IMG/VR virus record: IMGVR_UViG_2608642293_000001
Span: 1 to 64,000 of that record
Origin: a virus
Lineage: Duplodnaviria; Caudoviricetes
Reading direction: 5' to 3' (one strand)
DNA length: 64,000 nt
Part shown: positions 1 to 62,006 of the stretch, in pieces
Layout: each line of letters begins with the position of its first letter
Position numbering within the stretch: the first letter of the stretch is position 1
Notes under the pieces: generated by a model
Told to the model about the DNA's origin: nothing
Databases searched by the model: none
The model's input: only the letters and a program-made list of their open reading frames with translations
Position numbers and translations under genes: made by a program

Positions 1-50
1 TCAGCAATTACATCGCCTTTGGCTTGTATATAAGTTGCAGTCCATGGATT
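1..50 (-). pseudogene. cotJC: cotJC 3' fragment (start of it; continues left of window)
   Basis: Minus strand reads NPWTATYIQAKGDVIAD, matching the CotJC segment (B. subtilis-like ...GVPFTASYIQAKGDPIAD...). Confidence 0.9.
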
Positions 51-1671
51 CGCTTGAACTATCTAACTGCATGTTATCCAAGCAAAAAAACTTCACATCA
101 AAAATTTTGTTTGTGAAATCGCATGTTACTTTTTCAATTATATTTCTTAGTAGAGTTCGTTTTATATCTATATCATCAGTAGTATTAAAAGTTTTATTAA
201 AATCTATGAAACTTTGTATTAAATGTTTTATTTCTAAAATAGAATCCTTTAAATGGGCATGAGTTTCTTCGCTACTAGATAAGATTAACTTTAATTTATT
301 AACTTCAGTTGTCATTGCGGCAATTTGGGACCTATATATTTTTTTTACATCTTCCATTTCTGTTTTTGATAATTCATTAACGAGGTTTATAACCTGTTTT
401 TCTTTTTCAATTATTTGTGATTTTAAATTATCAACTATCTGTTTATCAGAATTTTTTAATAAATCATTCAGTTTATCATTATATGTCTTTAATATGATAT
501 TCTTATTATAGGTTTGTATTGTTTCTACTATAATAGGGTCAACAATGTCACATCTCAAGTTAGGAGCTGCACATCTATTAGTTAAATACTGCTTTTCTTT
601 ATTAGAACAAACATAATAAATATAACTCTTACCATCTTTATTTTTAGAATTATATTTTATTACCATATTTGAACCACATTTTCCACACTTTAATAGTCCA
701 GAAAACAAGGCATTATTAGATCCAGTGCCACTTCTATTTGATATTTGTTTTGATTTTTCAGCATTAGAGTCGAGTTTCTTTTGTACTCGAAGCCAATCAA
801 TTGATGGGATAATTCCAGAATGACCTGAGATGGCAACTATTATATTATCTTTATCAGTTTTTTTGTTATAAGTTAAGTATCCATTTCCATTAGCTTTACC
901 GTATACGTTAAAGTTTTTTGATTTTAGGTATTCGTGTGTAGATTCACTCGATTTGACATACAAACTACTTCTTAAAATTCTTTTTACACCAGTCAGTTCA
1001 AAGTTTACTCCAGTTTTGCTTTTATATCCATTATTGTTTAAATCTTTTACAACATTTAGAATTGAGCCTTTAGAAAGATAGTTATTATATATAAACTTTA
1101 TTATTTCTAATTCTTCATCGATAGGAATTAATTTAACAAAAGATTTTTCTTTCATTTCTTCATTCATATAATTAACTTTTTCTGAAGCATATCCAAGAGG
1201 CAGTTGCCCTCCAGACCATTTTCCTAACTTTGCAAGCTGAAGCATGTTATCTTTTACTCGTTCTGCAATTGTTTCACGTTCTAATTGGGCGAATACAGAA
1301 GCTATGTATATCATCGCACGGCCAGTAGGTGTACTGGTATCAAATCTTTCTTTAATGCTTATGAAATCGACACTATATTTTTGCAGTAATTCAAGTATTG
1401 AAGAAAAATCCGCAACATTACGTGAGATTCTATCTAATCTATAACAAATTAATACACTGATTTGATTAGATTTAATATCATTAAGTAATCTTTGGAAATT
1501 AGGTCTATTAACATTTTTACCACTAAAACCTTCATCTTCGTAGATTATGTATTCCAATTCCTCGTTTTTAAAATAAACCTCGCAATGATCTTTACATAAA
1601 TCAATTTGATTCTCAACACTTTCACCTTTGCCAGTAAAGACTGATTTTCTAGAATAGATAGCTATTTTCAT
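1..1671 (-). CDS. Large serine recombinase (integrase 1); last 13 codons are read from host cotJC DNA in another frame
   Basis: IAIYSRKS catalytic Ser motif, YEDEGFSG, YRLDRISR, recombinase domain, Zn ribbon CGKCG...C...C, coiled coil. ATG at 1671 follows a GAAGGTG RBS. Confidence 0.97.
   Translation of the reverse strand: MKIAIYSRKSVFTGKGESVENQIDLCKDHCEVYFKNEELEYIIYEDEGFSGKNVNRPNFQRLLNDIKSNQISVLICYRLDRISRNVADFSSILELLQKYSVDFISIKERFDTSTPTGRAMIYIASVFAQLERETIAERVKDNMLQLAKLGKWSGGQLPLGYASEKVNYMNEEMKEKSFVKLIPIDEELEIIKFIYNNYLSKGSILNVVKDLNNNGYKSKTGVNFELTGVKRILRSSLYVKSSESTHEYLKSKNFNVYGKANGNGYLTYNKKTDKDNIIVAISGHSGIIPSIDWLRVQKKLDSNAEKSKQISNRSGTGSNNALFSGLLKCGKCGSNMVIKYNSKNKDGKSYIYYVCSNKEKQYLTNRCAAPNLRCDIVDPIIVETIQTYNKNIILKTYNDKLNDLLKNSDKQIVDNLKSQIIEKEKQVINLVNELSKTEMEDVKKIYRSQIAAMTTEVNKLKLILSSSEETHAHLKDSILEIKHLIQSFIDFNKTFNTTDDIDIKRTLLRNIIEKVTCDFTNKIFDVKFFCLDNMQLDSSSESMDCNLYTSQRRCNC
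43..72. other. Left att junction of prophage 1 (core CATGGATT, phage arm 55-72)
   Basis: The core is repeated at 59117-59124. Arm 55-72 is a 15/18 inverted match to 59101-59118. Confidence 0.9.
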
Positions 1672-1723
1672 TAACAACACCTTCAATTCTAATTATTATA
1701 GATATGCAATTTAATATGTACTT

Positions 1724-2395
1724 TTAATAAATTTTAATTGCCTGTTTAACCTTACCTACTATTTCAATTTGATCTTTGACTATATCATACATTTGCGGAA
1801 CATATTGAGGGTCAGTGCTCATTGGAATTAGTGTTATCATATTATTATTTTGAATAACTTTTTTTACTGTAGCTTCCATTCCGTCAATCAATACAACTCC
1901 AATTGCTCCGTTTTCAACACATGGGGTTTTCTCAATTAATAATAGTGAACCATCACCGAATTCTTGATTCATACTATCCCCTTGAACACGTAAATAAAAA
2001 TAATCTGTATCTCTATTTAGAAAACTTTTTAATGTAGGCATATAACCATCGATATTATCTACAGCTAAAATAGGTTTTCCAGCTCTTACTGAACCAACTA
2101 TAGGCAAATTAATTATATTTGATTTATCTTCATTAATAGATTCATATACAGCGACTTCCTCTTTTACCCTGTCAGCTATAGTAGCGTCCCACATGTCTAT
2201 ATCATTTTTGAAAAAATCCGAAGTTTCAACGCCTAAAATATCTGCTATTTTATTTAGCTTATCTATAGTAGGGTTTGTAAATTTATTATTTTCAAGATCG
2301 CTTATGTATCCTGCGGAAATGCCACTAACCCTTGCCAAATTATTAAGACTCATTTTCTTATCTTTTCTTATCTTTCTTATATTATCACCTAACAA
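1724..2395 (-). CDS. CI-like repressor (XRE HTH + S24 autopeptidase)
   Basis: N-terminal HTH, VRAG cleavage site, LRVQGDSM catalytic Ser, TVKK Lys. Divergent from a cro-like gene. Confidence 0.95.
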   Translation of the reverse strand: MLGDNIRKIRKDKKMSLNNLARVSGISAGYISDLENNKFTNPTIDKLNKIADILGVETSDFFKNDIDMWDATIADRVKEEVAVYESINEDKSNIINLPIVGSVRAGKPILAVDNIDGYMPTLKSFLNRDTDYFYLRVQGDSMNQEFGDGSLLLIEKTPCVENGAIGVVLIDGMEATVKKVIQNNNMITLIPMSTDPQYVPQMYDIVKDQIEIVGKVKQAIKIY

Positions 2396-52549: not shown

Positions 52550-52664
52550 ACCTTACTCTTATTTTTTTTTATAATTTTTTAATAAATTTCAGAAACTTTA
52601 GGAAACTTTATTAAATTTATTGCATAGAATAAACCATAAGATAAATGAAAAGGAGCTAGAATTT

Positions 52665-53555
52665 ATGAAAGATTATGAAATTTTAGGTATAGACATAGGA
52701 AATTGCACAACTAAGACTAGCACTGGAATAATATTCGATTCTAAAATTACAGATATTGAACCACTCGGAAAATCAGACATGCTATTCATGGATAAAAAAA
52801 CTTACTGGTTAGGAGAGGGCAATTATGATACCACCTATAAGAAAGTGGATAAACAGAGTTATTTAAAATTACTTTATGGAGCAATAGGGTTGAGCGAACA
52901 ATCTAGTAATAAAATCATCAACAATTGTATAGTTTTGGGACTGCCTTTAAGCCAGTTTAAGGAAGATAAAATGTCTTTAGTTAATATGGTTTTAGCTAAT
53001 AGAGAAAAAATTATAAGAATTAACAATACAGAAAAACAAATCATTATACAGGATGTTGAAGTGTTTCCAGAAGGCGTTGTAACGCTGCCAGATGATTATG
53101 AGGGAATAGTAATAGATATAGGCGGTAGGACAACAGATTGTGCTTTAGTGGTTAACGAGAGAGGTAGAAGAAGGGTTTTAAATCCTATAAGTCTGCCTAC
53201 CGGAACTATAAACTTATACAAAGATTTCATTAATAAGGTCAACAATAAATTTAGTTTAGATTTAGGGATGAATGATGCTGAACGGTTAATGTTGAATGGT
53301 TTATATTTGGATGGAAAGAGGACAAATATTAATTTTGCGGTTGAAGTTTATAAACAGTTTGTAGATAGTCTAATAAGCCGCTTACAGGTTGAGTATTCTT
53401 TGAGAACTAATCGCATTAGTCTTACAGGTGGGGGAGCATTATTGGTTTACGAGCAAATTAGAGATAGATTGGGTGATGGAGTAACCCTTCAGGATAGACC
53501 TACACTAGCAAATGCGAGGGCATATTATGAATTGGGGTGCAGCATATGGCAATAG
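52665..53555 (+). CDS. parM: ParM/StbA-family actin-like ATPase
   Basis: GIDIGNCTTK (phosphate 1), VFPEG, VIDIGGRTTD (phosphate 2), LTGGGA, ANARAY. Confidence 0.9.
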   Translation: MKDYEILGIDIGNCTTKTSTGIIFDSKITDIEPLGKSDMLFMDKKTYWLGEGNYDTTYKKVDKQSYLKLLYGAIGLSEQSSNKIINNCIVLGLPLSQFKEDKMSLVNMVLANREKIIRINNTEKQIIIQDVEVFPEGVVTLPDDYEGIVIDIGGRTTDCALVVNERGRRRVLNPISLPTGTINLYKDFINKVNNKFSLDLGMNDAERLMLNGLYLDGKRTNINFAVEVYKQFVDSLISRLQVEYSLRTNRISLTGGGALLVYEQIRDRLGDGVTLQDRPTLANARAYYELGCSIWQ

Positions 53556-54662: not shown

Positions 54663-54929
54663 ATGAATGAAAGTATATCTAATGCAATTCAAAACGGATT
54701 TGATAAAGTTTCTGATAGTATAAAGGATAAAATTTCTGGCTTTATGATCTATATTTTAAAATCTATAGGAAATTTTGCTTTAGAGAGTTCGGATATAGTT
54801 TGTCCGATAATTTGTTTAATAGCATTAGCTTTTTATATAGGCGGTAATAGAAAGGCTGGTAAATATGTTTCAGGATCATTTGTATTATATTTTATACTTC
54901 AAGCACTTAGAGGTTTTATAAAAGCATGA
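54663..54929 (+). CDS. Small two-TM membrane protein
   Basis: Hydrophobic hairpin; stop overlaps the ATPase start (ATGA). Confidence 0.7.
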   Translation: MNESISNAIQNGFDKVSDSIKDKISGFMIYILKSIGNFALESSDIVCPIICLIALAFYIGGNRKAGKYVSGSFVLYFILQALRGFIKA

Positions 54930-57271
54930 AAAGCCTAAAATTATCTAACTATTTTGAATTAGTGAAACCAACCTACCGTTATATTAAAATTACAAGCCAT
55001 AAATCGATTCGCAATTACAATTCTGATAACTTAAGCAAATTTATTGCCCTTACCTACAAAAGCCTTGACAGAAGAATAAGAAAAGAACAAAAGAAGATAT
55101 TCTTCGAAACAACCTTTAAAATTTCCTACATTATAGATATTCAAAATAATGATTGTAGTTTTTATTTCTTGGTTCCTGAAGTGTATTTAAATATGTTATT
55201 TGAGAAAATAACAGAGATATGGAATAAAGCTACTGTTGAAGTTCTAGAGGATCCAATTAAACCTATCTCGGACAATGCTGAAATGTACCAATTATCATAC
55301 AAAAAAGAAGACGCTCTAAGTTTAAAGGTAGATAAAAAATCAAACGAACCTTTAAATTCTATTTTATCAGTTATGGATATTTTAAAGGATGATGATAGAG
55401 TAACAATAATTTATAATTTCTTACCTATAAGCCAGTTTTCATGGTTAGAAAGATATTTAGGGACTATAGAAAAATTAAAAGAAAATAAAATGGTTGATAA
55501 AAAGCAGACATCAATAGAATATTTGATTAAAACTACTGTACTATTTGTTTCAAAAATGATAACAGATTTTCTAAATGTTGTTGATGATTTCACAGGAGGA
55601 AACCCAGAACAGGAGAAAAAAAGCCTTTATGATGTTGTTATAGGGTATATGCAGAACAGAAAAGAATTGTCTCCAGCTACTAAGAAAAAGAAGGAAAGTA
55701 CTGTCCTAGATACTCAAATTGTTGTATTTTCAGAAAGCAAAGATAATATACGAAAAACTAATAATGCTTTGAGTACATGCCAAGCCTATAGGGTTTTGGA
55801 TGAAGACAACGAACTTATGTATAAAAAAGTAAAAAAGAAGATAAGAAAAAAATTCAAGGATATAGAACAAACAGATTATAGAGTAGATTACAATACTATG
55901 AGTGTAGAAGAAGTAGGGAGCACTTGTTTACAAATTCCAGCAAGAAGCCTTTTATATCAATTTAAATTGAAATTTGTTAATGTAGAAGAAGTTCAAATAC
56001 CCGAGAAACTAAGGCAAGGTTACATTACATTAGGAACCAATAAATTCAAAGGGAAAACCTACGAAACTTACTTTGAAGATCATAAAGATATAGGTTCATT
56101 AGGTTTAGTGTTGTTGGCAAGGCAAGGCGGCGGGAAAACAACTTACTTATGCCATTATTCTAAAGATTGCTTATCTAGAAAAGAAAGTATAGTACACATA
56201 GATTTTATTAGAAACAACGAAGCTAGTAAAACAATTGAAAAAGTAGTGCCTAAAGAAGATCTAATAATATTAGATTTAAGCACAGAGGAAGGATTACAAG
56301 CTCTAGCATATAATGAGATTGAATTTACAGAAAATATATCTTTATTTGAAAGGCAGGCTCTAGCTAATAAAAAGGCTGAAATGACAATACAATTAGTAGA
56401 TAGCATAAATGATAATGGAGAACCTTTAAGCCCTAAAATGAGTCGTTATTTAAGTGCTGCAGCTAATGTTATATATATTAAGGAAAATACTACCTTGAAA
56501 GATGTTATAAGATGCCTACAGGATTATAAGTTTAGAGAAGAATCAATTAATACTTGTATTCCAGATGTATTAAAAGAGGAATTTGAAGAAGAAATACAAG
56601 CTTTAGAGGAATTAGATGAATACACAAAAGCTACAAAAGATAACCCAAGCCAAAAATGTGGAACTAAGGATAGTAAAATAGAAGGGATTTTGGACCGTAT
56701 AAGTTTACTAATGAGAGATTTTTATTTAAAGAAGATGTTTAAGAAGAATCCGAAGAATAATATAAATTTCGCTAAAGCCACAGAAGAAGGGAAAGTTATA
56801 TTAATTCGTATGCAACAAAGTAAGTTTAAGGACTATGCAAAGAATGTTATTACTACTTTCTTCATTACTAAAACATGGCTGGCATGTGAGCTTAGAGGGG
56901 ACTTATCCGAGACACAACGAAGAACTCATATAATTATAGATGAAATAAGTCAAACTAAAACAGCGGAAAGATTTTTAGAAAGTAAATTAACTCAAGGTAG
57001 AAAGTTTGGATTTAAACCAGTTCTAGCGCTCCAATATTTAGATCAGCTAGATAAGAAGACAATATATTCACTTAAAGGTGCTGGATGCAGTTTTATGCTG
57101 CTTAAAGGTGCTATAAAAGAAGACTTTGAGTATTTTAAAGATGAAATAGATAACTTTGAATATGAAGATTTAAAGGAAATGAGCAAGACATATAAATATC
57201 CATCGTTTAATATTATCCAGTATTCAGATGGAGTTACAAGTTTTATAACAGAATTGCCTAAACCAGTTTAA
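54926..57271 (+). CDS. VirB4/HerA-FtsK superfamily P-loop ATPase
   Basis: Walker A ARQGGGKT, Walker B HIIIDE, QGRKFG arginine finger, ALQYLDQL. Confidence 0.85.
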   Translation: MKSLKLSNYFELVKPTYRYIKITSHKSIRNYNSDNLSKFIALTYKSLDRRIRKEQKKIFFETTFKISYIIDIQNNDCSFYFLVPEVYLNMLFEKITEIWNKATVEVLEDPIKPISDNAEMYQLSYKKEDALSLKVDKKSNEPLNSILSVMDILKDDDRVTIIYNFLPISQFSWLERYLGTIEKLKENKMVDKKQTSIEYLIKTTVLFVSKMITDFLNVVDDFTGGNPEQEKKSLYDVVIGYMQNRKELSPATKKKKESTVLDTQIVVFSESKDNIRKTNNALSTCQAYRVLDEDNELMYKKVKKKIRKKFKDIEQTDYRVDYNTMSVEEVGSTCLQIPARSLLYQFKLKFVNVEEVQIPEKLRQGYITLGTNKFKGKTYETYFEDHKDIGSLGLVLLARQGGGKTTYLCHYSKDCLSRKESIVHIDFIRNNEASKTIEKVVPKEDLIILDLSTEEGLQALAYNEIEFTENISLFERQALANKKAEMTIQLVDSINDNGEPLSPKMSRYLSAAANVIYIKENTTLKDVIRCLQDYKFREESINTCIPDVLKEEFEEEIQALEELDEYTKATKDNPSQKCGTKDSKIEGILDRISLLMRDFYLKKMFKKNPKNNINFAKATEEGKVILIRMQQSKFKDYAKNVITTFFITKTWLACELRGDLSETQRRTHIIIDEISQTKTAERFLESKLTQGRKFGFKPVLALQYLDQLDKKTIYSLKGAGCSFMLLKGAIKEDFEYFKDEIDNFEYEDLKEMSKTYKYPSFNIIQYSDGVTSFITELPKPV

Positions 57272-57283
57272 AGACCAAGATAT

Positions 57284-57523
57284 TTAATTATCCTGGTCTT
57301 CCTCATTATCGAAATTATAATGTTGTTTGAAGTAGTGTAGGATTCTGTAAGAGCTTATTCCAAGTTCTTTAGATAACCTGAAAATCACGTTTACAGTTGG
57401 GTTACAAGCGCTAGGGTGCTTTTCCATTTTAGATAGATAAGATTTACTAACCCCAATTTTAAGAGCCAATTCAGTTAAAGAAAGTTCTTTTTCAGTTCGC
57501 TTTTCCTCGAGCAGGCAAACCAC
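57284..57523 (-). CDS. XRE HTH regulator
   Basis: LSLTELALKIGVSKSYLSKMEK. Confidence 0.85.
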   Translation of the reverse strand: MVCLLEEKRTEKELSLTELALKIGVSKSYLSKMEKHPSACNPTVNVIFRLSKELGISSYRILHYFKQHYNFDNEEDQDN

Positions 57524-58018: not shown

Positions 58019-58246
58019 TTATTTAGGGTAAGGTTTTCTGATGCTAGTCCTACCAAGCAGAAAATCTGTACTAACTTCATAAAAATCAGCAAATAATTCA
58101 ATCATTTGAATAGATGGCTCATATGTACCATTTTCATAATGAGCGTATGCTGATCTAGATATATTAAGTTTTTTAGAGAGCTCGACCTGAGTGAGTTCGG
58201 CTTCGTTTCTAAGATATGTTAATCTTTTAGATAGCAATTTTATCAC
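58019..58246 (-). CDS. XRE HTH regulator
   Basis: LTQVELSKKLNISRSAYAHYENG...VSTDFLLG. Confidence 0.9.
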   Translation of the reverse strand: MIKLLSKRLTYLRNEAELTQVELSKKLNISRSAYAHYENGTYEPSIQMIELFADFYEVSTDFLLGRTSIRKPYPK

Positions 58247-58693: not shown

Positions 58694-59119
58694 TCATAGA
58701 ATATTATATTCTTTTAATAACTTATATTTATCTCTGCTTACATTATTAGAACCATTTTCCCAACTGCACCAAGCTGTAATGCTTATATTAGTGAGATTAC
58801 ATACTTCCTTTATAGATAAGTTATTTTGTTTTCGATAGTTTAATAACTTTTCACTAGAGTTATTTGTTTCCTCCAAATATGTATCGTAAAAATATTTCGT
58901 ATCAAGATTGAAGTGAAGAGCTAATTTTTGTGAGATTTCTCGTCCAGGTAATTTTCTACCTAATTCAATATCTTTTATACATGATCCTTTACTAAAACCA
59001 ACTATTTCAGCCAATTTATCTTGAGTTAGGTCATTTTTTAATCGATGAAATTTTAACTTATCACCTATAGTTTTGCCAAAATCAAACATATTAATTTTAT
59101 ATGTAGTTAGAATGTTCAT
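58694..59119 (-). CDS. Twin XRE-HTH protein whose ATG lies in the att core; in frame with integrase 1 after excision
   Basis: Two HTHs (LTQDKLAEIVG...IELG; LSIKEVCNLTNIS...WENG); ATG is the CAT at 59117-59119. Confidence 0.88.
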   Translation of the reverse strand: MNILTTYKINMFDFGKTIGDKLKFHRLKNDLTQDKLAEIVGFSKGSCIKDIELGRKLPGREISQKLALHFNLDTKYFYDTYLEETNNSSEKLLNYRKQNNLSIKEVCNLTNISITAWCSWENGSNNVSRDKYKLLKEYNIL

Positions 59120-59124
59120 GGATT
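59101..59124. other. Right att junction of prophage 1
   Basis: Core CATGGATT at 59117-59124 and phage arm 59101-59118. Confidence 0.9.
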
Positions 59125-59274
59125 TCCTGTTGCATCTGTATAAAATACTGCTTTTCTATGATCAGCATAATGCCCAGCAAGTCCTGCTTTTTTTATCTCT
59201 TCTATAGTTGCATTTTCCATAAGTTGATATACCATTGTAGCAATTATTTCTACATGGGCCATTTCTTCTGTTCC
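59119..59274 (-). pseudogene. cotJC: cotJC internal fragment (52 codons) between the two prophages
   Basis: GTEEMAHVEIIATMVYQLMENATIEEIKKAGLAGHYADHRKAVFYTDATGNP, containing the EExxH Mn-catalase motif; joins in frame to WTATYIQAKGD at the left edge. Confidence 0.95.
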
Positions 59275-60929
59275 GTTGACTTAAATGCAGAATTTCCGAA
59301 ATCTTTTCTTTCAAGACTAGAACCGATTGGGACTACTGTTAAAGAATTATTATCACTATCCCAAACTACGAATTTAACAACACTAGATATAAGTCTTTTT
59401 TTATCTTCAAAAGTTTGGGTGAAATCATAGAATTTTTTAAAATTATCATATATATCAAGTATTTCAGAAATATCTTTCTTTATATCAAGGATAGTATCAT
59501 TTTCTGTTTTTAATTTAATAATATTATCTTCCAATTCTTTGTTTTCTTTACGCAGTTGTCTTATTTCATTCTCATAAGTATCAATCATTTCTTCTTCGTT
59601 CGATTTGGCGACCCGCCTTGATAAATTACTAATCATTTCTTTATTTTCAGATATTTTTTTAGTTAACTTAATTATTAAATCATTGTTATTAGTTTTTACA
59701 GCAGCTCTTTGCTTAAAATCTAGATAGGTGTTCATAATCTCGTCTTCAGTCATACTCTTAATTCTATTAACAACATAATCTTCAGCATCATATGCATTTA
59801 GTGAAGTGTTATCACATCTATTTCCGGCTTTATTCTTCAAATTGCAGGTGTAGTACCTGTATATACTTTCAGTACCATTAATAAGTTTATTAAATTGCTT
59901 TCTAGGAGCCATACTAGAACCACAATGCCCACAAATGACCAATCCACTTAAAAGTGCATTTATACTAGTATATTGCCTATTAGATGCTTTTAATTTAATT
60001 TCTTCACAAATATCTTGACATTTAATCCAATCCTGGCTGCATATTATTCCAGGATGGTCACCTATAGATATTAACCAATCTTCTGTAGGCGCAAAGCTGC
60101 CATTTTCTTTTCTTCGATTATAGGGCATTATGCCATTGACACCATTGGCATATTCTCTTCTATAAATTTCACAACCTTCATCTTTAAAGAAATCAAGAAT
60201 TAAATTATCAGCTATAACATAAACTGGATTATTTATCATTTGCTTAACGAGCTCTCTTGAAAAAACGCGTCCTTTACGGCTGTAAATACCTTGATTTTCT
60301 AATGTCAAACTAACTTTTTGAAAACTTTTATATTTTTTAAATAACTCAAATACTAATTTCACAGTTTTAATGTCGTTTTCTTCAATTTGGAGTATATGCT
60401 TTTTTCTACTTTTTCCTCTTAAATCATTATTTTCAACTTGAATAGATATATAGCCTAAAGGAGCAGGTCCACCTAGCCATCTACCAGTTTTACTTAATTC
60501 TCTAAGATTGTCTTGTATACGTTCCGCTATGGTTTCTCTTTCAAGTTGTGCAAAGGTAGCAGATATATTCATCATAGCTCTTCCCATTGCAGTAGAAGTA
60601 TCAAATTGCTCTTTAATACTTACGAAGGAGACATCAAATTTATCTAAAACATTAAGAGTATTAGTGAAGTCTGCAACATTTCTGGAAATTCTATCAAGTC
60701 GATAACAGATAAGATGGGTAAAATATTTATTTTTAATATCTCTCATAAGTTTTTGAAATTGAGGCCTGTTTGTATTGCCTCCAGAAAAGCCTTCATCCTC
60801 ATATACTTCATATTCTGCGATATTTAGAACATTTTGGGCATATTTAATACACATATTAATCTGATTTTCTATAGATTCTCCCTCTTCTGTAAATTTACTT
60901 TTACGAGAATAAATTGCAATTTTAGACAT
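59250..60929 (-). CDS. Large serine recombinase (integrase 2); last codons read from cotJC DNA
   Basis: IAIYSRKS, YEDEGFSG, YRLDRISR, CGHCG Zn ribbon; ends TEQKKWPM* inside the cotJC fragment. Confidence 0.97.
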   Translation of the reverse strand: MSKIAIYSRKSKFTEEGESIENQINMCIKYAQNVLNIAEYEVYEDEGFSGGNTNRPQFQKLMRDIKNKYFTHLICYRLDRISRNVADFTNTLNVLDKFDVSFVSIKEQFDTSTAMGRAMMNISATFAQLERETIAERIQDNLRELSKTGRWLGGPAPLGYISIQVENNDLRGKSRKKHILQIEENDIKTVKLVFELFKKYKSFQKVSLTLENQGIYSRKGRVFSRELVKQMINNPVYVIADNLILDFFKDEGCEIYRREYANGVNGIMPYNRRKENGSFAPTEDWLISIGDHPGIICSQDWIKCQDICEEIKLKASNRQYTSINALLSGLVICGHCGSSMAPRKQFNKLINGTESIYRYYTCNLKNKAGNRCDNTSLNAYDAEDYVVNRIKSMTEDEIMNTYLDFKQRAAVKTNNNDLIIKLTKKISENKEMISNLSRRVAKSNEEEMIDTYENEIRQLRKENKELEDNIIKLKTENDTILDIKKDISEILDIYDNFKKFYDFTQTFEDKKRLISSVVKFVVWDSDNNSLTVVPIGSSLERKDFGNSAFKSTEQKKWPM

Positions 60930-60957: not shown

Positions 60958-61422
60958 TTAAAATATATCATTTCTTAAAACTCCAAATCCTGGTTCAAAA
61001 TAAAGAATTATATTTTCACACTCTTTATACATACCATGTTTGCGTCTATGATACTCAATAGCTTCATCAAAAAACTTATCCGTTAATGTTAAATATTCAG
61101 CAACCTCATATCTGTCATTAGCACCATTTTTAATAGCTCTTACTATTTGTTTTAGACTGCAAACTCTTTCAATACTTTCAGCTCTTGCTGCATTTTCTAA
61201 TTTCTTATTTATTATACTATCTAGGTTTAATATATTTCCTGATGTGGTTTTAAAATGTCCTATTTCCTCTGACAATATCCAGTATTTTTGCTTTTCGCAT
61301 AAATTCTTATTTATAAATAATACTTCATTAAGACAATAACCTGACTCACCCTCTAAATCCATTTCAACTACAACAGCGCCAATATTTTCAGCTTCAACAA
61401 TAAGCTTTTCATATGCAGTCAT
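60958..61422 (-). CDS. ImmA/IrrE-family metallopeptidase (anti-repressor)
   Basis: ILSEEIGHF...E..A motif; between repressor and integrase. Confidence 0.85.
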   Translation of the reverse strand: MTAYEKLIVEAENIGAVVVEMDLEGESGYCLNEVLFINKNLCEKQKYWILSEEIGHFKTTSGNILNLDSIINKKLENAARAESIERVCSLKQIVRAIKNGANDRYEVAEYLTLTDKFFDEAIEYHRRKHGMYKECENIILYFEPGFGVLRNDIF

Positions 61423-61448
61423 TAATCCCCCCACCTATCTATTTAAAG

Positions 61449-61991
61449 CTATTTATTATGCATTTCTTTATATTTTGCTTTAATTTTTTCTATATTTCTA
61501 GCATTTGCATCATCACGGATATTATCATTATGGGCAGCTAAGATTTCTATTTCAGGTTCTCTATTATTTTTATAAGATTTTCTGCATTTACTTGTTATTT
61601 CCGATATTTTAAATTTTATAAATGAATCGGCACTTTTTTGTAAATCAATTATGTCATTCTCAGATATTTCATATTCAGCATCTGTTGTATTTAGAATCAA
61701 ATAACCTTCAGGATCATATATGATTTCATAACCTAGATTTTGCAGGTATTGTTCTATGAAATAGTTTCTTTTTGTTTCAATTTTAATATCACTTTTATTT
61801 TCATCAACAAGTTGAGATAAAGTTAAGCCTAATCCTTTTGAAAGATTAGAAAGAGTTTCAACACTAGGATTGTATCTATTCCTTTCAATATCGGCTAGAT
61901 AAGATCGTGATATTGAAGCTTTTTTTGCTAAGTCAACTTGAGTCAATTTTTGCATCTTTCTTAGTTCTTTTATTTTGGTTCCTACATCCAT
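61449..61991 (-). CDS. XRE repressor of element 2 (no S24 domain)
   Basis: N-terminal HTH; C-terminal ILAAH motif typical of ImmA-paired repressors. Confidence 0.88.
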   Translation of the reverse strand: MDVGTKIKELRKMQKLTQVDLAKKASISRSYLADIERNRYNPSVETLSNLSKGLGLTLSQLVDENKSDIKIETKRNYFIEQYLQNLGYEIIYDPEGYLILNTTDAEYEISENDIIDLQKSADSFIKFKISEITSKCRKSYKNNREPEIEILAAHNDNIRDDANARNIEKIKAKYKEMHNK

Positions 61992-62006
61992 TTCAAATAC
62001 CTCCAT

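Follow-up and report, generated by a model that had tools for sequence, protein, structure and literature searches.

Does an ATGA in which the stop codon of a split host gene overlaps the start codon of a prophage gene couple the expression of the two, or is it left behind by the way in which the prophage entered the gene? The locus that raises this question lies in the window, by which we mean the whole 64,000-nucleotide stretch analysed here, comprising the initial 64 kb of a record of 108,873 bp that is classified as provirus. In it, a fragment of the host gene cotJC adjoins an open reading frame (ORF) for a 141-aa protein with two helix-turn-helix (HTH) domains, which we refer to as the twin-HTH ORF. 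The cotJ operon is under mother-cell (sigma-E) control in B. subtilis, and a first-pass annotation of the window had proposed that the overlap allows the prophage to sense cotJC transcription and to respond to it with excision.

On the minus strand the junction reads ...ACAGGAAATCCATGAACATT..., and its anatomy is as the first-pass annotation had described it. The cotJC frame ends in GGA AAT CCA TGA, with the TGA (59118-59116) sharing bases with the ATG (59119-59117) that opens the twin-HTH ORF; the resulting ATGA occupies 59116..59119 (minus strand), and an AGGA at 59125..59128 (minus strand), contained in the Thr-Gly codons of cotJC, is separated from the ATG by the 5-nt spacer AATCC. The frame closed by the TGA is a true piece of cotJC, since it matches positions 53-95 of the Pfam family Mn_catalase, and the stop/start overlap typical of coupled gene pairs is thus present in this junction. 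The 48-codon cotJC frame before the TGA, however, opens at an internal ATG without a clear ribosome-binding site, and the start-bearing 5' part of cotJC is absent from the 108,873-bp record. It lies past the second prophage (element 2), more than 49 kb off, which upholds the earlier statement that element 2 sits between the twin-HTH ORF and the cotJ promoter. As the 48-codon frame is severed from its 5' part, there is no obviously translated upstream ORF for coupling in this genome, whereas a single lysogen would have one. The stop codon of the element 2 integrase (int2) lies 131 nt from the junction ATG, and no terminator-like site was found between the two.

The host gene in its unoccupied state could be followed in RNA-seq reads (runs X21 and X23) of another strain with the same species label that carries neither prophage. 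These reads match the window over 59110-59279 only and follow intact cotJC beyond this stretch at either side, with breaks at 59117 (22 and 144 reads in X21 and X23, respectively) and at 59275 (23 and 96 reads). Because the prophage-free reads continue into intact cotJC, they fix both insertion points and identify the AGGA, together with the DNA to its left on the minus strand, as host DNA, as had been claimed for this motif. The middle fragment of cotJC, recognised by its Mn_catalase match and by the same reads, therefore spans 59125..59275 (minus strand) between the two prophages, and another piece of the gene is found at window positions 1-42. At the junction, read identity to intact cotJC breaks after 59117, a position of the attL core of element 1 (AATCCATG, 59117..59124, minus strand), and the same 8 bases form the attR core at 43..50 (minus strand), inside the ORF of the element 1 integrase (int1). 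The junction ATG is part of this 8-bp core common to attL and attR. A model of attP is most symmetric around the core AA, with 16/22 matching arm positions (shuffles gave a mean of 6.7, sd 2.1, and a maximum of 14), and attB is most symmetric around CC (12/22). Element 1 thus has two features of a prophage that splits a sporulation gene, namely a large serine recombinase at its end and an insertion within the cotJC ORF whose flanks rejoin to an intact gene. A single lysogen of the element 2 type (G006) is identical in cotJC over the middle fragment and leaves site 1 unoccupied, and metagenome contigs from runs X3 and X4 contain cotJC with the int2 junction while lacking element 1. At 59270 and 59285 the sequence of these contigs departs from that of the window and becomes unrelated to it, suggesting that other strains have further elements or variants near site 2 of cotJC. 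In the relative G003 (L009 227-260), the stop codon of the integrase is enclosed by a 7-bp inverted repeat, GGCGTTA...TAACGCC, directly ahead of the att core AAATGC.

Two prophages with serine integrases are inserted about 150 bp apart within cotJC. Read along the minus strand, the element 2 repressor, an ImmA-like peptidase and int2 come first, followed by the roughly 150 bp of cotJC and the twin-HTH ORF; about 57 kb of phage genes, most of them on the opposite (plus) strand, then lead to a LexA/CI-like repressor and int1. The tandem double lysogeny put forward in the first-pass annotation was confirmed by int2 (59250..60929, minus strand), a 559-aa large serine recombinase with the Pfam domains Resolvase, Recombinase and Zn_ribbon_recom that ends within the cotJC fragment. 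Its last ~8 codons are host cotJC DNA, and the same tail is found in G006. The ImmA-like peptidase and XRE repressor (60958..62006, minus strand; Pfam) precede int2 and share its strand. Element 2 extends past base 108,873, so that its distal end is outside the record, and the record of its closest relative, G006, ends inside tail genes; a search for a twin-HTH partner at the record ends of int2-type elements gave no convincing match in 5 records. At the other end of the window, int1 (1..1686, minus strand), with the same three Pfam domains, encodes a large serine recombinase of 561 aa in its prophage form and is 38% identical to int2. The LexA/CI-like repressor (HTH and peptidase S24 domains by Pfam; 1724..2395, minus strand) lies directly upstream of int1 on the same strand.

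The relationship between int1 and the twin-HTH ORF (58694..59119, minus strand) becomes apparent when the two ends of prophage 1 are compared. Integrase 1 reads the att core as ...Ser-Glu-Ser-Met, and the twin-HTH ORF opens at the same ATG in the same phase. The last ~16 codons of int1 are cotJC 3' DNA read in another frame, the cotJC-frame reading of this DNA being NPWTATYIQAKGDVIA. Joining the two ends in silico at the core produces one open frame of 688 codons. The 561-aa prophage form keeps all canonical domains of a large serine recombinase, and there are 541-aa relatives that have no HTH module altogether.

When 1.84 billion representative proteins were scanned by HMMER for the twin-HTH sequence, 478 matched at E <= 0.001, and Pfam was run on 9 among the 150 matches listed. 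One of the nine, P0019 (676 aa), has two HTH domains C-terminal to its Resolvase, Recombinase and Zn_ribbon_recom domains, with the match to the twin-HTH ORF covering residues 541-670 (E 1.5e-31, 45% identity). Five are recombinase-free proteins with many HTH repeats, and the remaining three are free twin-HTH proteins. In P0019 the junction reads ...Arg-Glu-Ser-Met-Cys-Tyr-Gln..., at the site predicted from the window, and the joined 688-aa frame aligns with this protein end to end (56.4% over 663 positions). A second fused cluster, P0173 (681 aa), emerged from a region-restricted search (2 matches among 297 candidates), and here the end-to-end alignment of the joined frame reaches 59.9% over 684 positions with 3 gaps. 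The fused forms are known here as protein sequences and came only from the HMMER scan and this one follow-up search. The 90% cluster of P0019 has 8 members from separate assemblies, of which seven are fused (676-682 aa) and one is truncated (544 aa); the truncated member ends in ...ESLDCYLHPK, resembling the cotJC-derived tails of the window (...ESMDCNLY...) and of L010 (...ESMDCHIY...). Public data thus hold one integrase in both of its states, fused and truncated.

The shared in-phase ATG, the 688-codon join and the natural fused homologues together identify the twin-HTH "gene" as the 3' third of an integrase ORF. As judged by these comparisons, the twin-HTH ORF is the severed 3' part of the prophage 1 integrase ORF, inside which attP lies; integration splits this ORF at the att core into a truncated integrase with all its canonical domains and a promoter-less HTH remnant. 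What had been annotated as a twin-HTH gene does exist as a 141-aa ORF opening at the overlapping ATG, but not as a free-standing gene.

Within the 141-aa ORF, Pfam HTH_19 matches two stretches (E 3e-16), indicating two XRE-type HTH domains, and sequence searches of the PDB and PHROGs retrieved generic XRE regulators only. Other searches with this sequence reached less far than the HMMER scan: a single-protein scan matched one of 68 stretches of genome contigs (L002, from a MAG, 40% identity) and none of 18 stretches of viral contigs, and a word-based search for longer relatives gave no match among 339 candidates, though fused forms exist that this method missed. Four of the HMMER matches, P0018, P0021, P0100 and P0052, are proteins of 534-1002 aa that consist of 6 to 11 tandem XRE HTH domains and nothing else. 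Small XRE HTH genes are also found just inside the twin-HTH remnant of the window, one at 57284-57523 and another at 58019-58246; both are on the same (minus) strand as the remnant and would share any read-through from the junction.

To what extent is the ATGA a property of the family? One comparison comes from L051, a metagenome contig representing a related single lysogen, in which cotJB (PF12652) and an uninterrupted cotJC 5' part are followed by an HTH sequence of the element 1 type that is 61% identical. At the place of the Met codon L051 has ACG, with neither ATGA nor AGGA there; its HTH frame runs for 33 codons without an in-frame ATG, GTG or TTG, and the cotJC frame reaches a stop three codons later. 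In P0173 the Met is replaced at the junction, and in P0002, P0017 and P0019 the second residue is Asp or Cys, which excludes ATGA. The overlap is accordingly not conserved among related junctions. Furthermore, given an ATG in the att core, an ATGA requires only that the next base be A, so its occurrence in the window represents no excess over chance. The ATGA overlap therefore looks like a by-product of the insertion site in this sequence comparison, rather than a conserved coupling device.

The orientation of the host gene points in the same direction. Outside the cotJC group, the HTH end of G003, L065, L061 and L063 borders on long open frames of the opposite strand, while in L004 the HTH is co-oriented with a small Cys-rich host ORF. 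Since the host gene is mostly on the opposite strand outside the cotJC-targeting group, the family as such is not characterised by the capture of a host promoter. In L004 (positions 1-560) a 159-aa twin-HTH ORF opens ~20 codons into the host ORF with a strong ribosome-binding site (MEYEIKDCIDAGSEYCPSC...), and an Rfam search upstream of the HTH in this contig gave no match.

These observations bear on the sensing model of the first-pass annotation, in which mother-cell translation of cotJA-B-C would allow reinitiation at the ATGA with the help of the host AGGA, and the free twin-HTH protein, as a directionality factor or an activator, would then trigger excision, so that cotJC is rebuilt during sporulation; in the double lysogen, element 2 would leave first, or read-through from int2 would substitute for the cotJ promoter. 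The overlap and the AGGA are real, and the twin-HTH ORF is co-oriented with cotJC in both the window and L051, such that in a single lysogen the cotJ promoter would read into the remnant, but L051, itself a single lysogen of the same type, lacks both the start codon and the overlap, and in the double lysogen of the window more than 49 kb separate the junction from the 5' part of cotJC. The model could also draw on SPbeta, whose directionality factor is encoded by sprB, the gene that directly follows the 5' half of the split gene (PMC4191935, PMC6957869), and on the natural fusion with the integrase, which argues that the two parts work together. The infecting genome, however, encodes only the fused form, and as lysogens exist, this form must presumably be competent for integration, which argues against the attached module being a classical integration-blocking directionality factor in cis. 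In addition, with only host DNA upstream, vegetative SOS induction could not express the HTH module, and lytic excision would need another factor. Together with the junctions that cannot read ATGA and the opposite orientation of the host gene in most relatives outside cotJC, this makes sensing of cotJC an unlikely explanation for the locus as a whole. The comparison weakens this excision model in general, while for the cotJC-targeting subfamily it is possible; were it true there, it would constitute the simplest known tie between prophage excision and a host developmental promoter.

Alternatively, the arrangement might be neutral, with integrase ORFs running past attP and being by chance in frame with a regulator gene, in which case the HTH would add nothing and the remnant would be inert. 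Integrase ORFs that cross their own att site are indeed common in this clade: int2 does so, the ORFs of L014, L015, L016 and L021 run ~40 codons into cotJC, and in L018 and L019, where the integrase lies mid-record, the protein is 576 aa long compared to 542-563 aa in integrated relatives. The prior chance of being in frame is, moreover, one in three. Such an accident would nevertheless have to account for a fusion that is kept in two clusters, P0019 and P0173, whose HTH parts are only 57% identical, and that recurs in the window element with an HTH part 45% identical to that of P0019. It would also have to account for the order of integrase followed by HTH being kept down to 37-40% identity, which argues for selection on the partnership and renders neutral read-through improbable. 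As to the tails themselves, some of the ORFs of the int2 relatives enter cotJC in a third frame. The L018/L019 ORF is ~30 residues longer than in integrated relatives, and the tail lost in the latter has a YYQNTNIN-like peptide that resembles the peptide encoded by the P' arm of element 1.

The conserved order was observed in unfused relatives on the same strand, in unintegrated or mid-contig forms, with the twin-HTH following the integrase at L033, L036, L040 and L043 (four of the seven loci with more than 2 kb downstream) and at L055, L057 and L060 (3/16 metagenome loci). In the phages HM T and TPELB_ph1 an unfused HTH ORF likewise follows the integrase gene, the HM T copy appearing truncated, and in an integrated form, G003, the integrase and the twin-HTH are at opposite ends. 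In the window and in G003 the HTH thus occupies the position of a recombination directionality factor (RDF), across attP from the integrase and at the attL end, a position that by itself does not define an RDF. Along with the fusion, the persistence of this pairing down to 37-40% identity speaks for a module that functions in partnership with the integrase. That the twin-HTH ORF is instead an ordinary prophage regulator gene whose frame match with int1 is coincidental would fit its generic XRE and PHROG 'transcriptional regulator' matches and its annotation in several Clostridium genomes as a separate protein of 141 aa, a "helix-turn-helix transcriptional regulator", but is very improbable in view of natural fused proteins that are colinear over the junction and of the paired truncated form.

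In order to rationalise the locus as a whole, we favour an explanation that we regard as probable, in which a group of Clostridium phages carries attP in the integrase ORF, integration splits this ORF, the HTH module is active mainly in the unintegrated genome, and the ATGA and AGGA are by-products. The attP core in the prophage 1 group would lie inside the 3' part of the integrase ORF, and the excised or infecting genome would hold one ORF (688 codons here) encoding the large serine integrase, a short linker and the C-terminal twin-HTH module. Recombination with the cotJC site GGA AAT CCA TGG would cut this ORF at the Glu-Ser-Met codons. The resulting prophage integrase would keep its recombinase, zinc-ribbon and coiled-coil parts and end in ~16 host-coded residues, and the other prophage end would be left with a promoter-less HTH remnant opening at the core ATG. 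ATGA and AGGA would arise as the phage P' arm, with A as its first base, comes to follow the host Gly-Asn-Pro codons. We infer that the HTH module and the integrase act together mainly in the unintegrated genome, with the module probably produced from the repressor-integrase operon, whether fused to the integrase or encoded by the gene that follows it. The module would then be switched off by integration itself, such that the two DNA states would encode two forms of the integrase. In the double lysogen, any expression of the remnant would be expected from read-through of the element 2 repressor-ImmA-int2 transcript and not from cotJ. The module could serve as an integration aid, in the regulation of the repressor-int operon or in something else. 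Several observations count against this explanation: the ATG is kept at the junction in 6/8 lineages (the window, P0002, P0004, P0006/P0012, P0017 and P0019, but not L051 and P0173), the remnant HTH ORFs are unbroken in every lysogen seen, the elements that target cotJC are co-oriented with it, and SPbeta has sprB at the equivalent position.

A more speculative extension, which we consider doubtful, would turn the split into a switch set by the state of the DNA. The excised Int-HTH fusion would integrate; once integrated, the element would produce the short integrase and hold the detached module under the mother-cell cotJ promoter, from which the module would act in trans like an RDF, leading to excision, to the rebuilding of cotJC and to re-fusion of the integrase gene. 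Such a cycle would reset itself and would require no separate RDF gene.

Self-splitting integrase genes have been described in archaea. In SSV1-type 'suicidal' integrases of archaeal viruses and plasmids the att site lies in the integrase ORF, which integration splits and excision rebuilds (PMC8371274, PMC7253208), and a 2021 review treats self-splitting integrases as exclusively archaeal (PMC8371274). Element 1 resembles them in having its att site within the integrase ORF, with intact and split forms of an ORF that contains the attP core. It does not belong to the SSV family of tyrosine recombinases, as its enzyme is a large serine recombinase of a bacterial phage. In the SSV type the split separates essential parts, whereas the cut in element 1 removes only the C-terminal twin-HTH and leaves all canonical domains in the prophage form. 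In the literature searched we found no bacterial serine integrase split by its own attP, the 'suicidal integrase' papers being archaeal, nor, with subscription journals excluded, a description of a natural serine integrase that gains or loses a C-terminal DNA-binding module with its integration state. The self-split serine integrase of element 1 thus appears undescribed.

Other known systems share individual features with element 1. Circular forms of Tn4451 (TnpX), Tn916 and ICEclc make an expression unit that is missing when these elements are integrated, their joints creating promoters or transcripts; element 1 likewise has a product specific to the circular form, but its joint makes a longer protein. 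Prophages that split mother-cell sporulation genes, such as SPbeta (SprA/SprB) and skin (SpoIVCA/Skr), are well known. Element 1 shares with them a large serine integrase at one end, an insertion in a sporulation gene that is exactly rebuilt and, at the other end, a small partner gene that directly follows the 5' half of the host gene. The SPbeta unit is written attL-sprB-sprA-attR (PMC4191935, PMC6957869). SprB has 58 aa and its own stress and sigma-E/K promoters and is never in the integrase ORF, whereas the element 1 partner has 141 aa and a double XRE HTH and shares the integrase frame when the element is excised. As regards the target, cotJC is already listed as a frequent prophage target (bioRxiv 10.1101/2021.11.22.469490, in a passage citing Abe 2013). 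In mycobacteriophages with integration-dependent immunity (BPs, Brujita and cluster P), attP lies in a regulatory ORF, according to the descriptions in PMC4557955 and PMC3694055. As in these phages, the viral and prophage states of element 1 encode different C-termini, but there a repressor is split and the integrase is a tyrosine recombinase, whereas element 1 splits the serine integrase itself. Engineered integrase-RDF fusions have been made with phiC31 (Int-gp3) and SPbeta (Int-RDF), as presented in PMC5737554 and PMC11722253. They too extend a large serine integrase at its C-terminus by a partner protein, but these laboratory constructs favour excision, while the natural fusion would have to be competent for integration.

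With element 1, the self-splitting of integrase genes would no longer be confined to tyrosine enzymes of archaea but would include serine enzymes of bacteria. The direction of large serine integrases, which are widely used for genome engineering, is normally set by a separate partner that is hard to find; here, integration would strip a DNA-binding module from the integrase and excision would restore it, yielding a natural pair of full-length and truncated isoforms. There are also consequences for annotation: the 141-aa HTH regulators and the integrases with odd C-terminal tails are two halves of one gene, and prophage boundaries set at gene ends cut through the att sites.

Further inside prophage 1, a 781-aa TrwB-like ATPase (54926..57271, plus strand; Pfam TrwB_AAD_bind, phrog_5156) is encoded, and homologues of this protein with 794 and 801 aa adjoin the HTH in the distant relatives L003 and L004, in convergent orientation. 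Prophage 1 also encodes an actin-like ParM/ALP segregation protein at 52620-53555.
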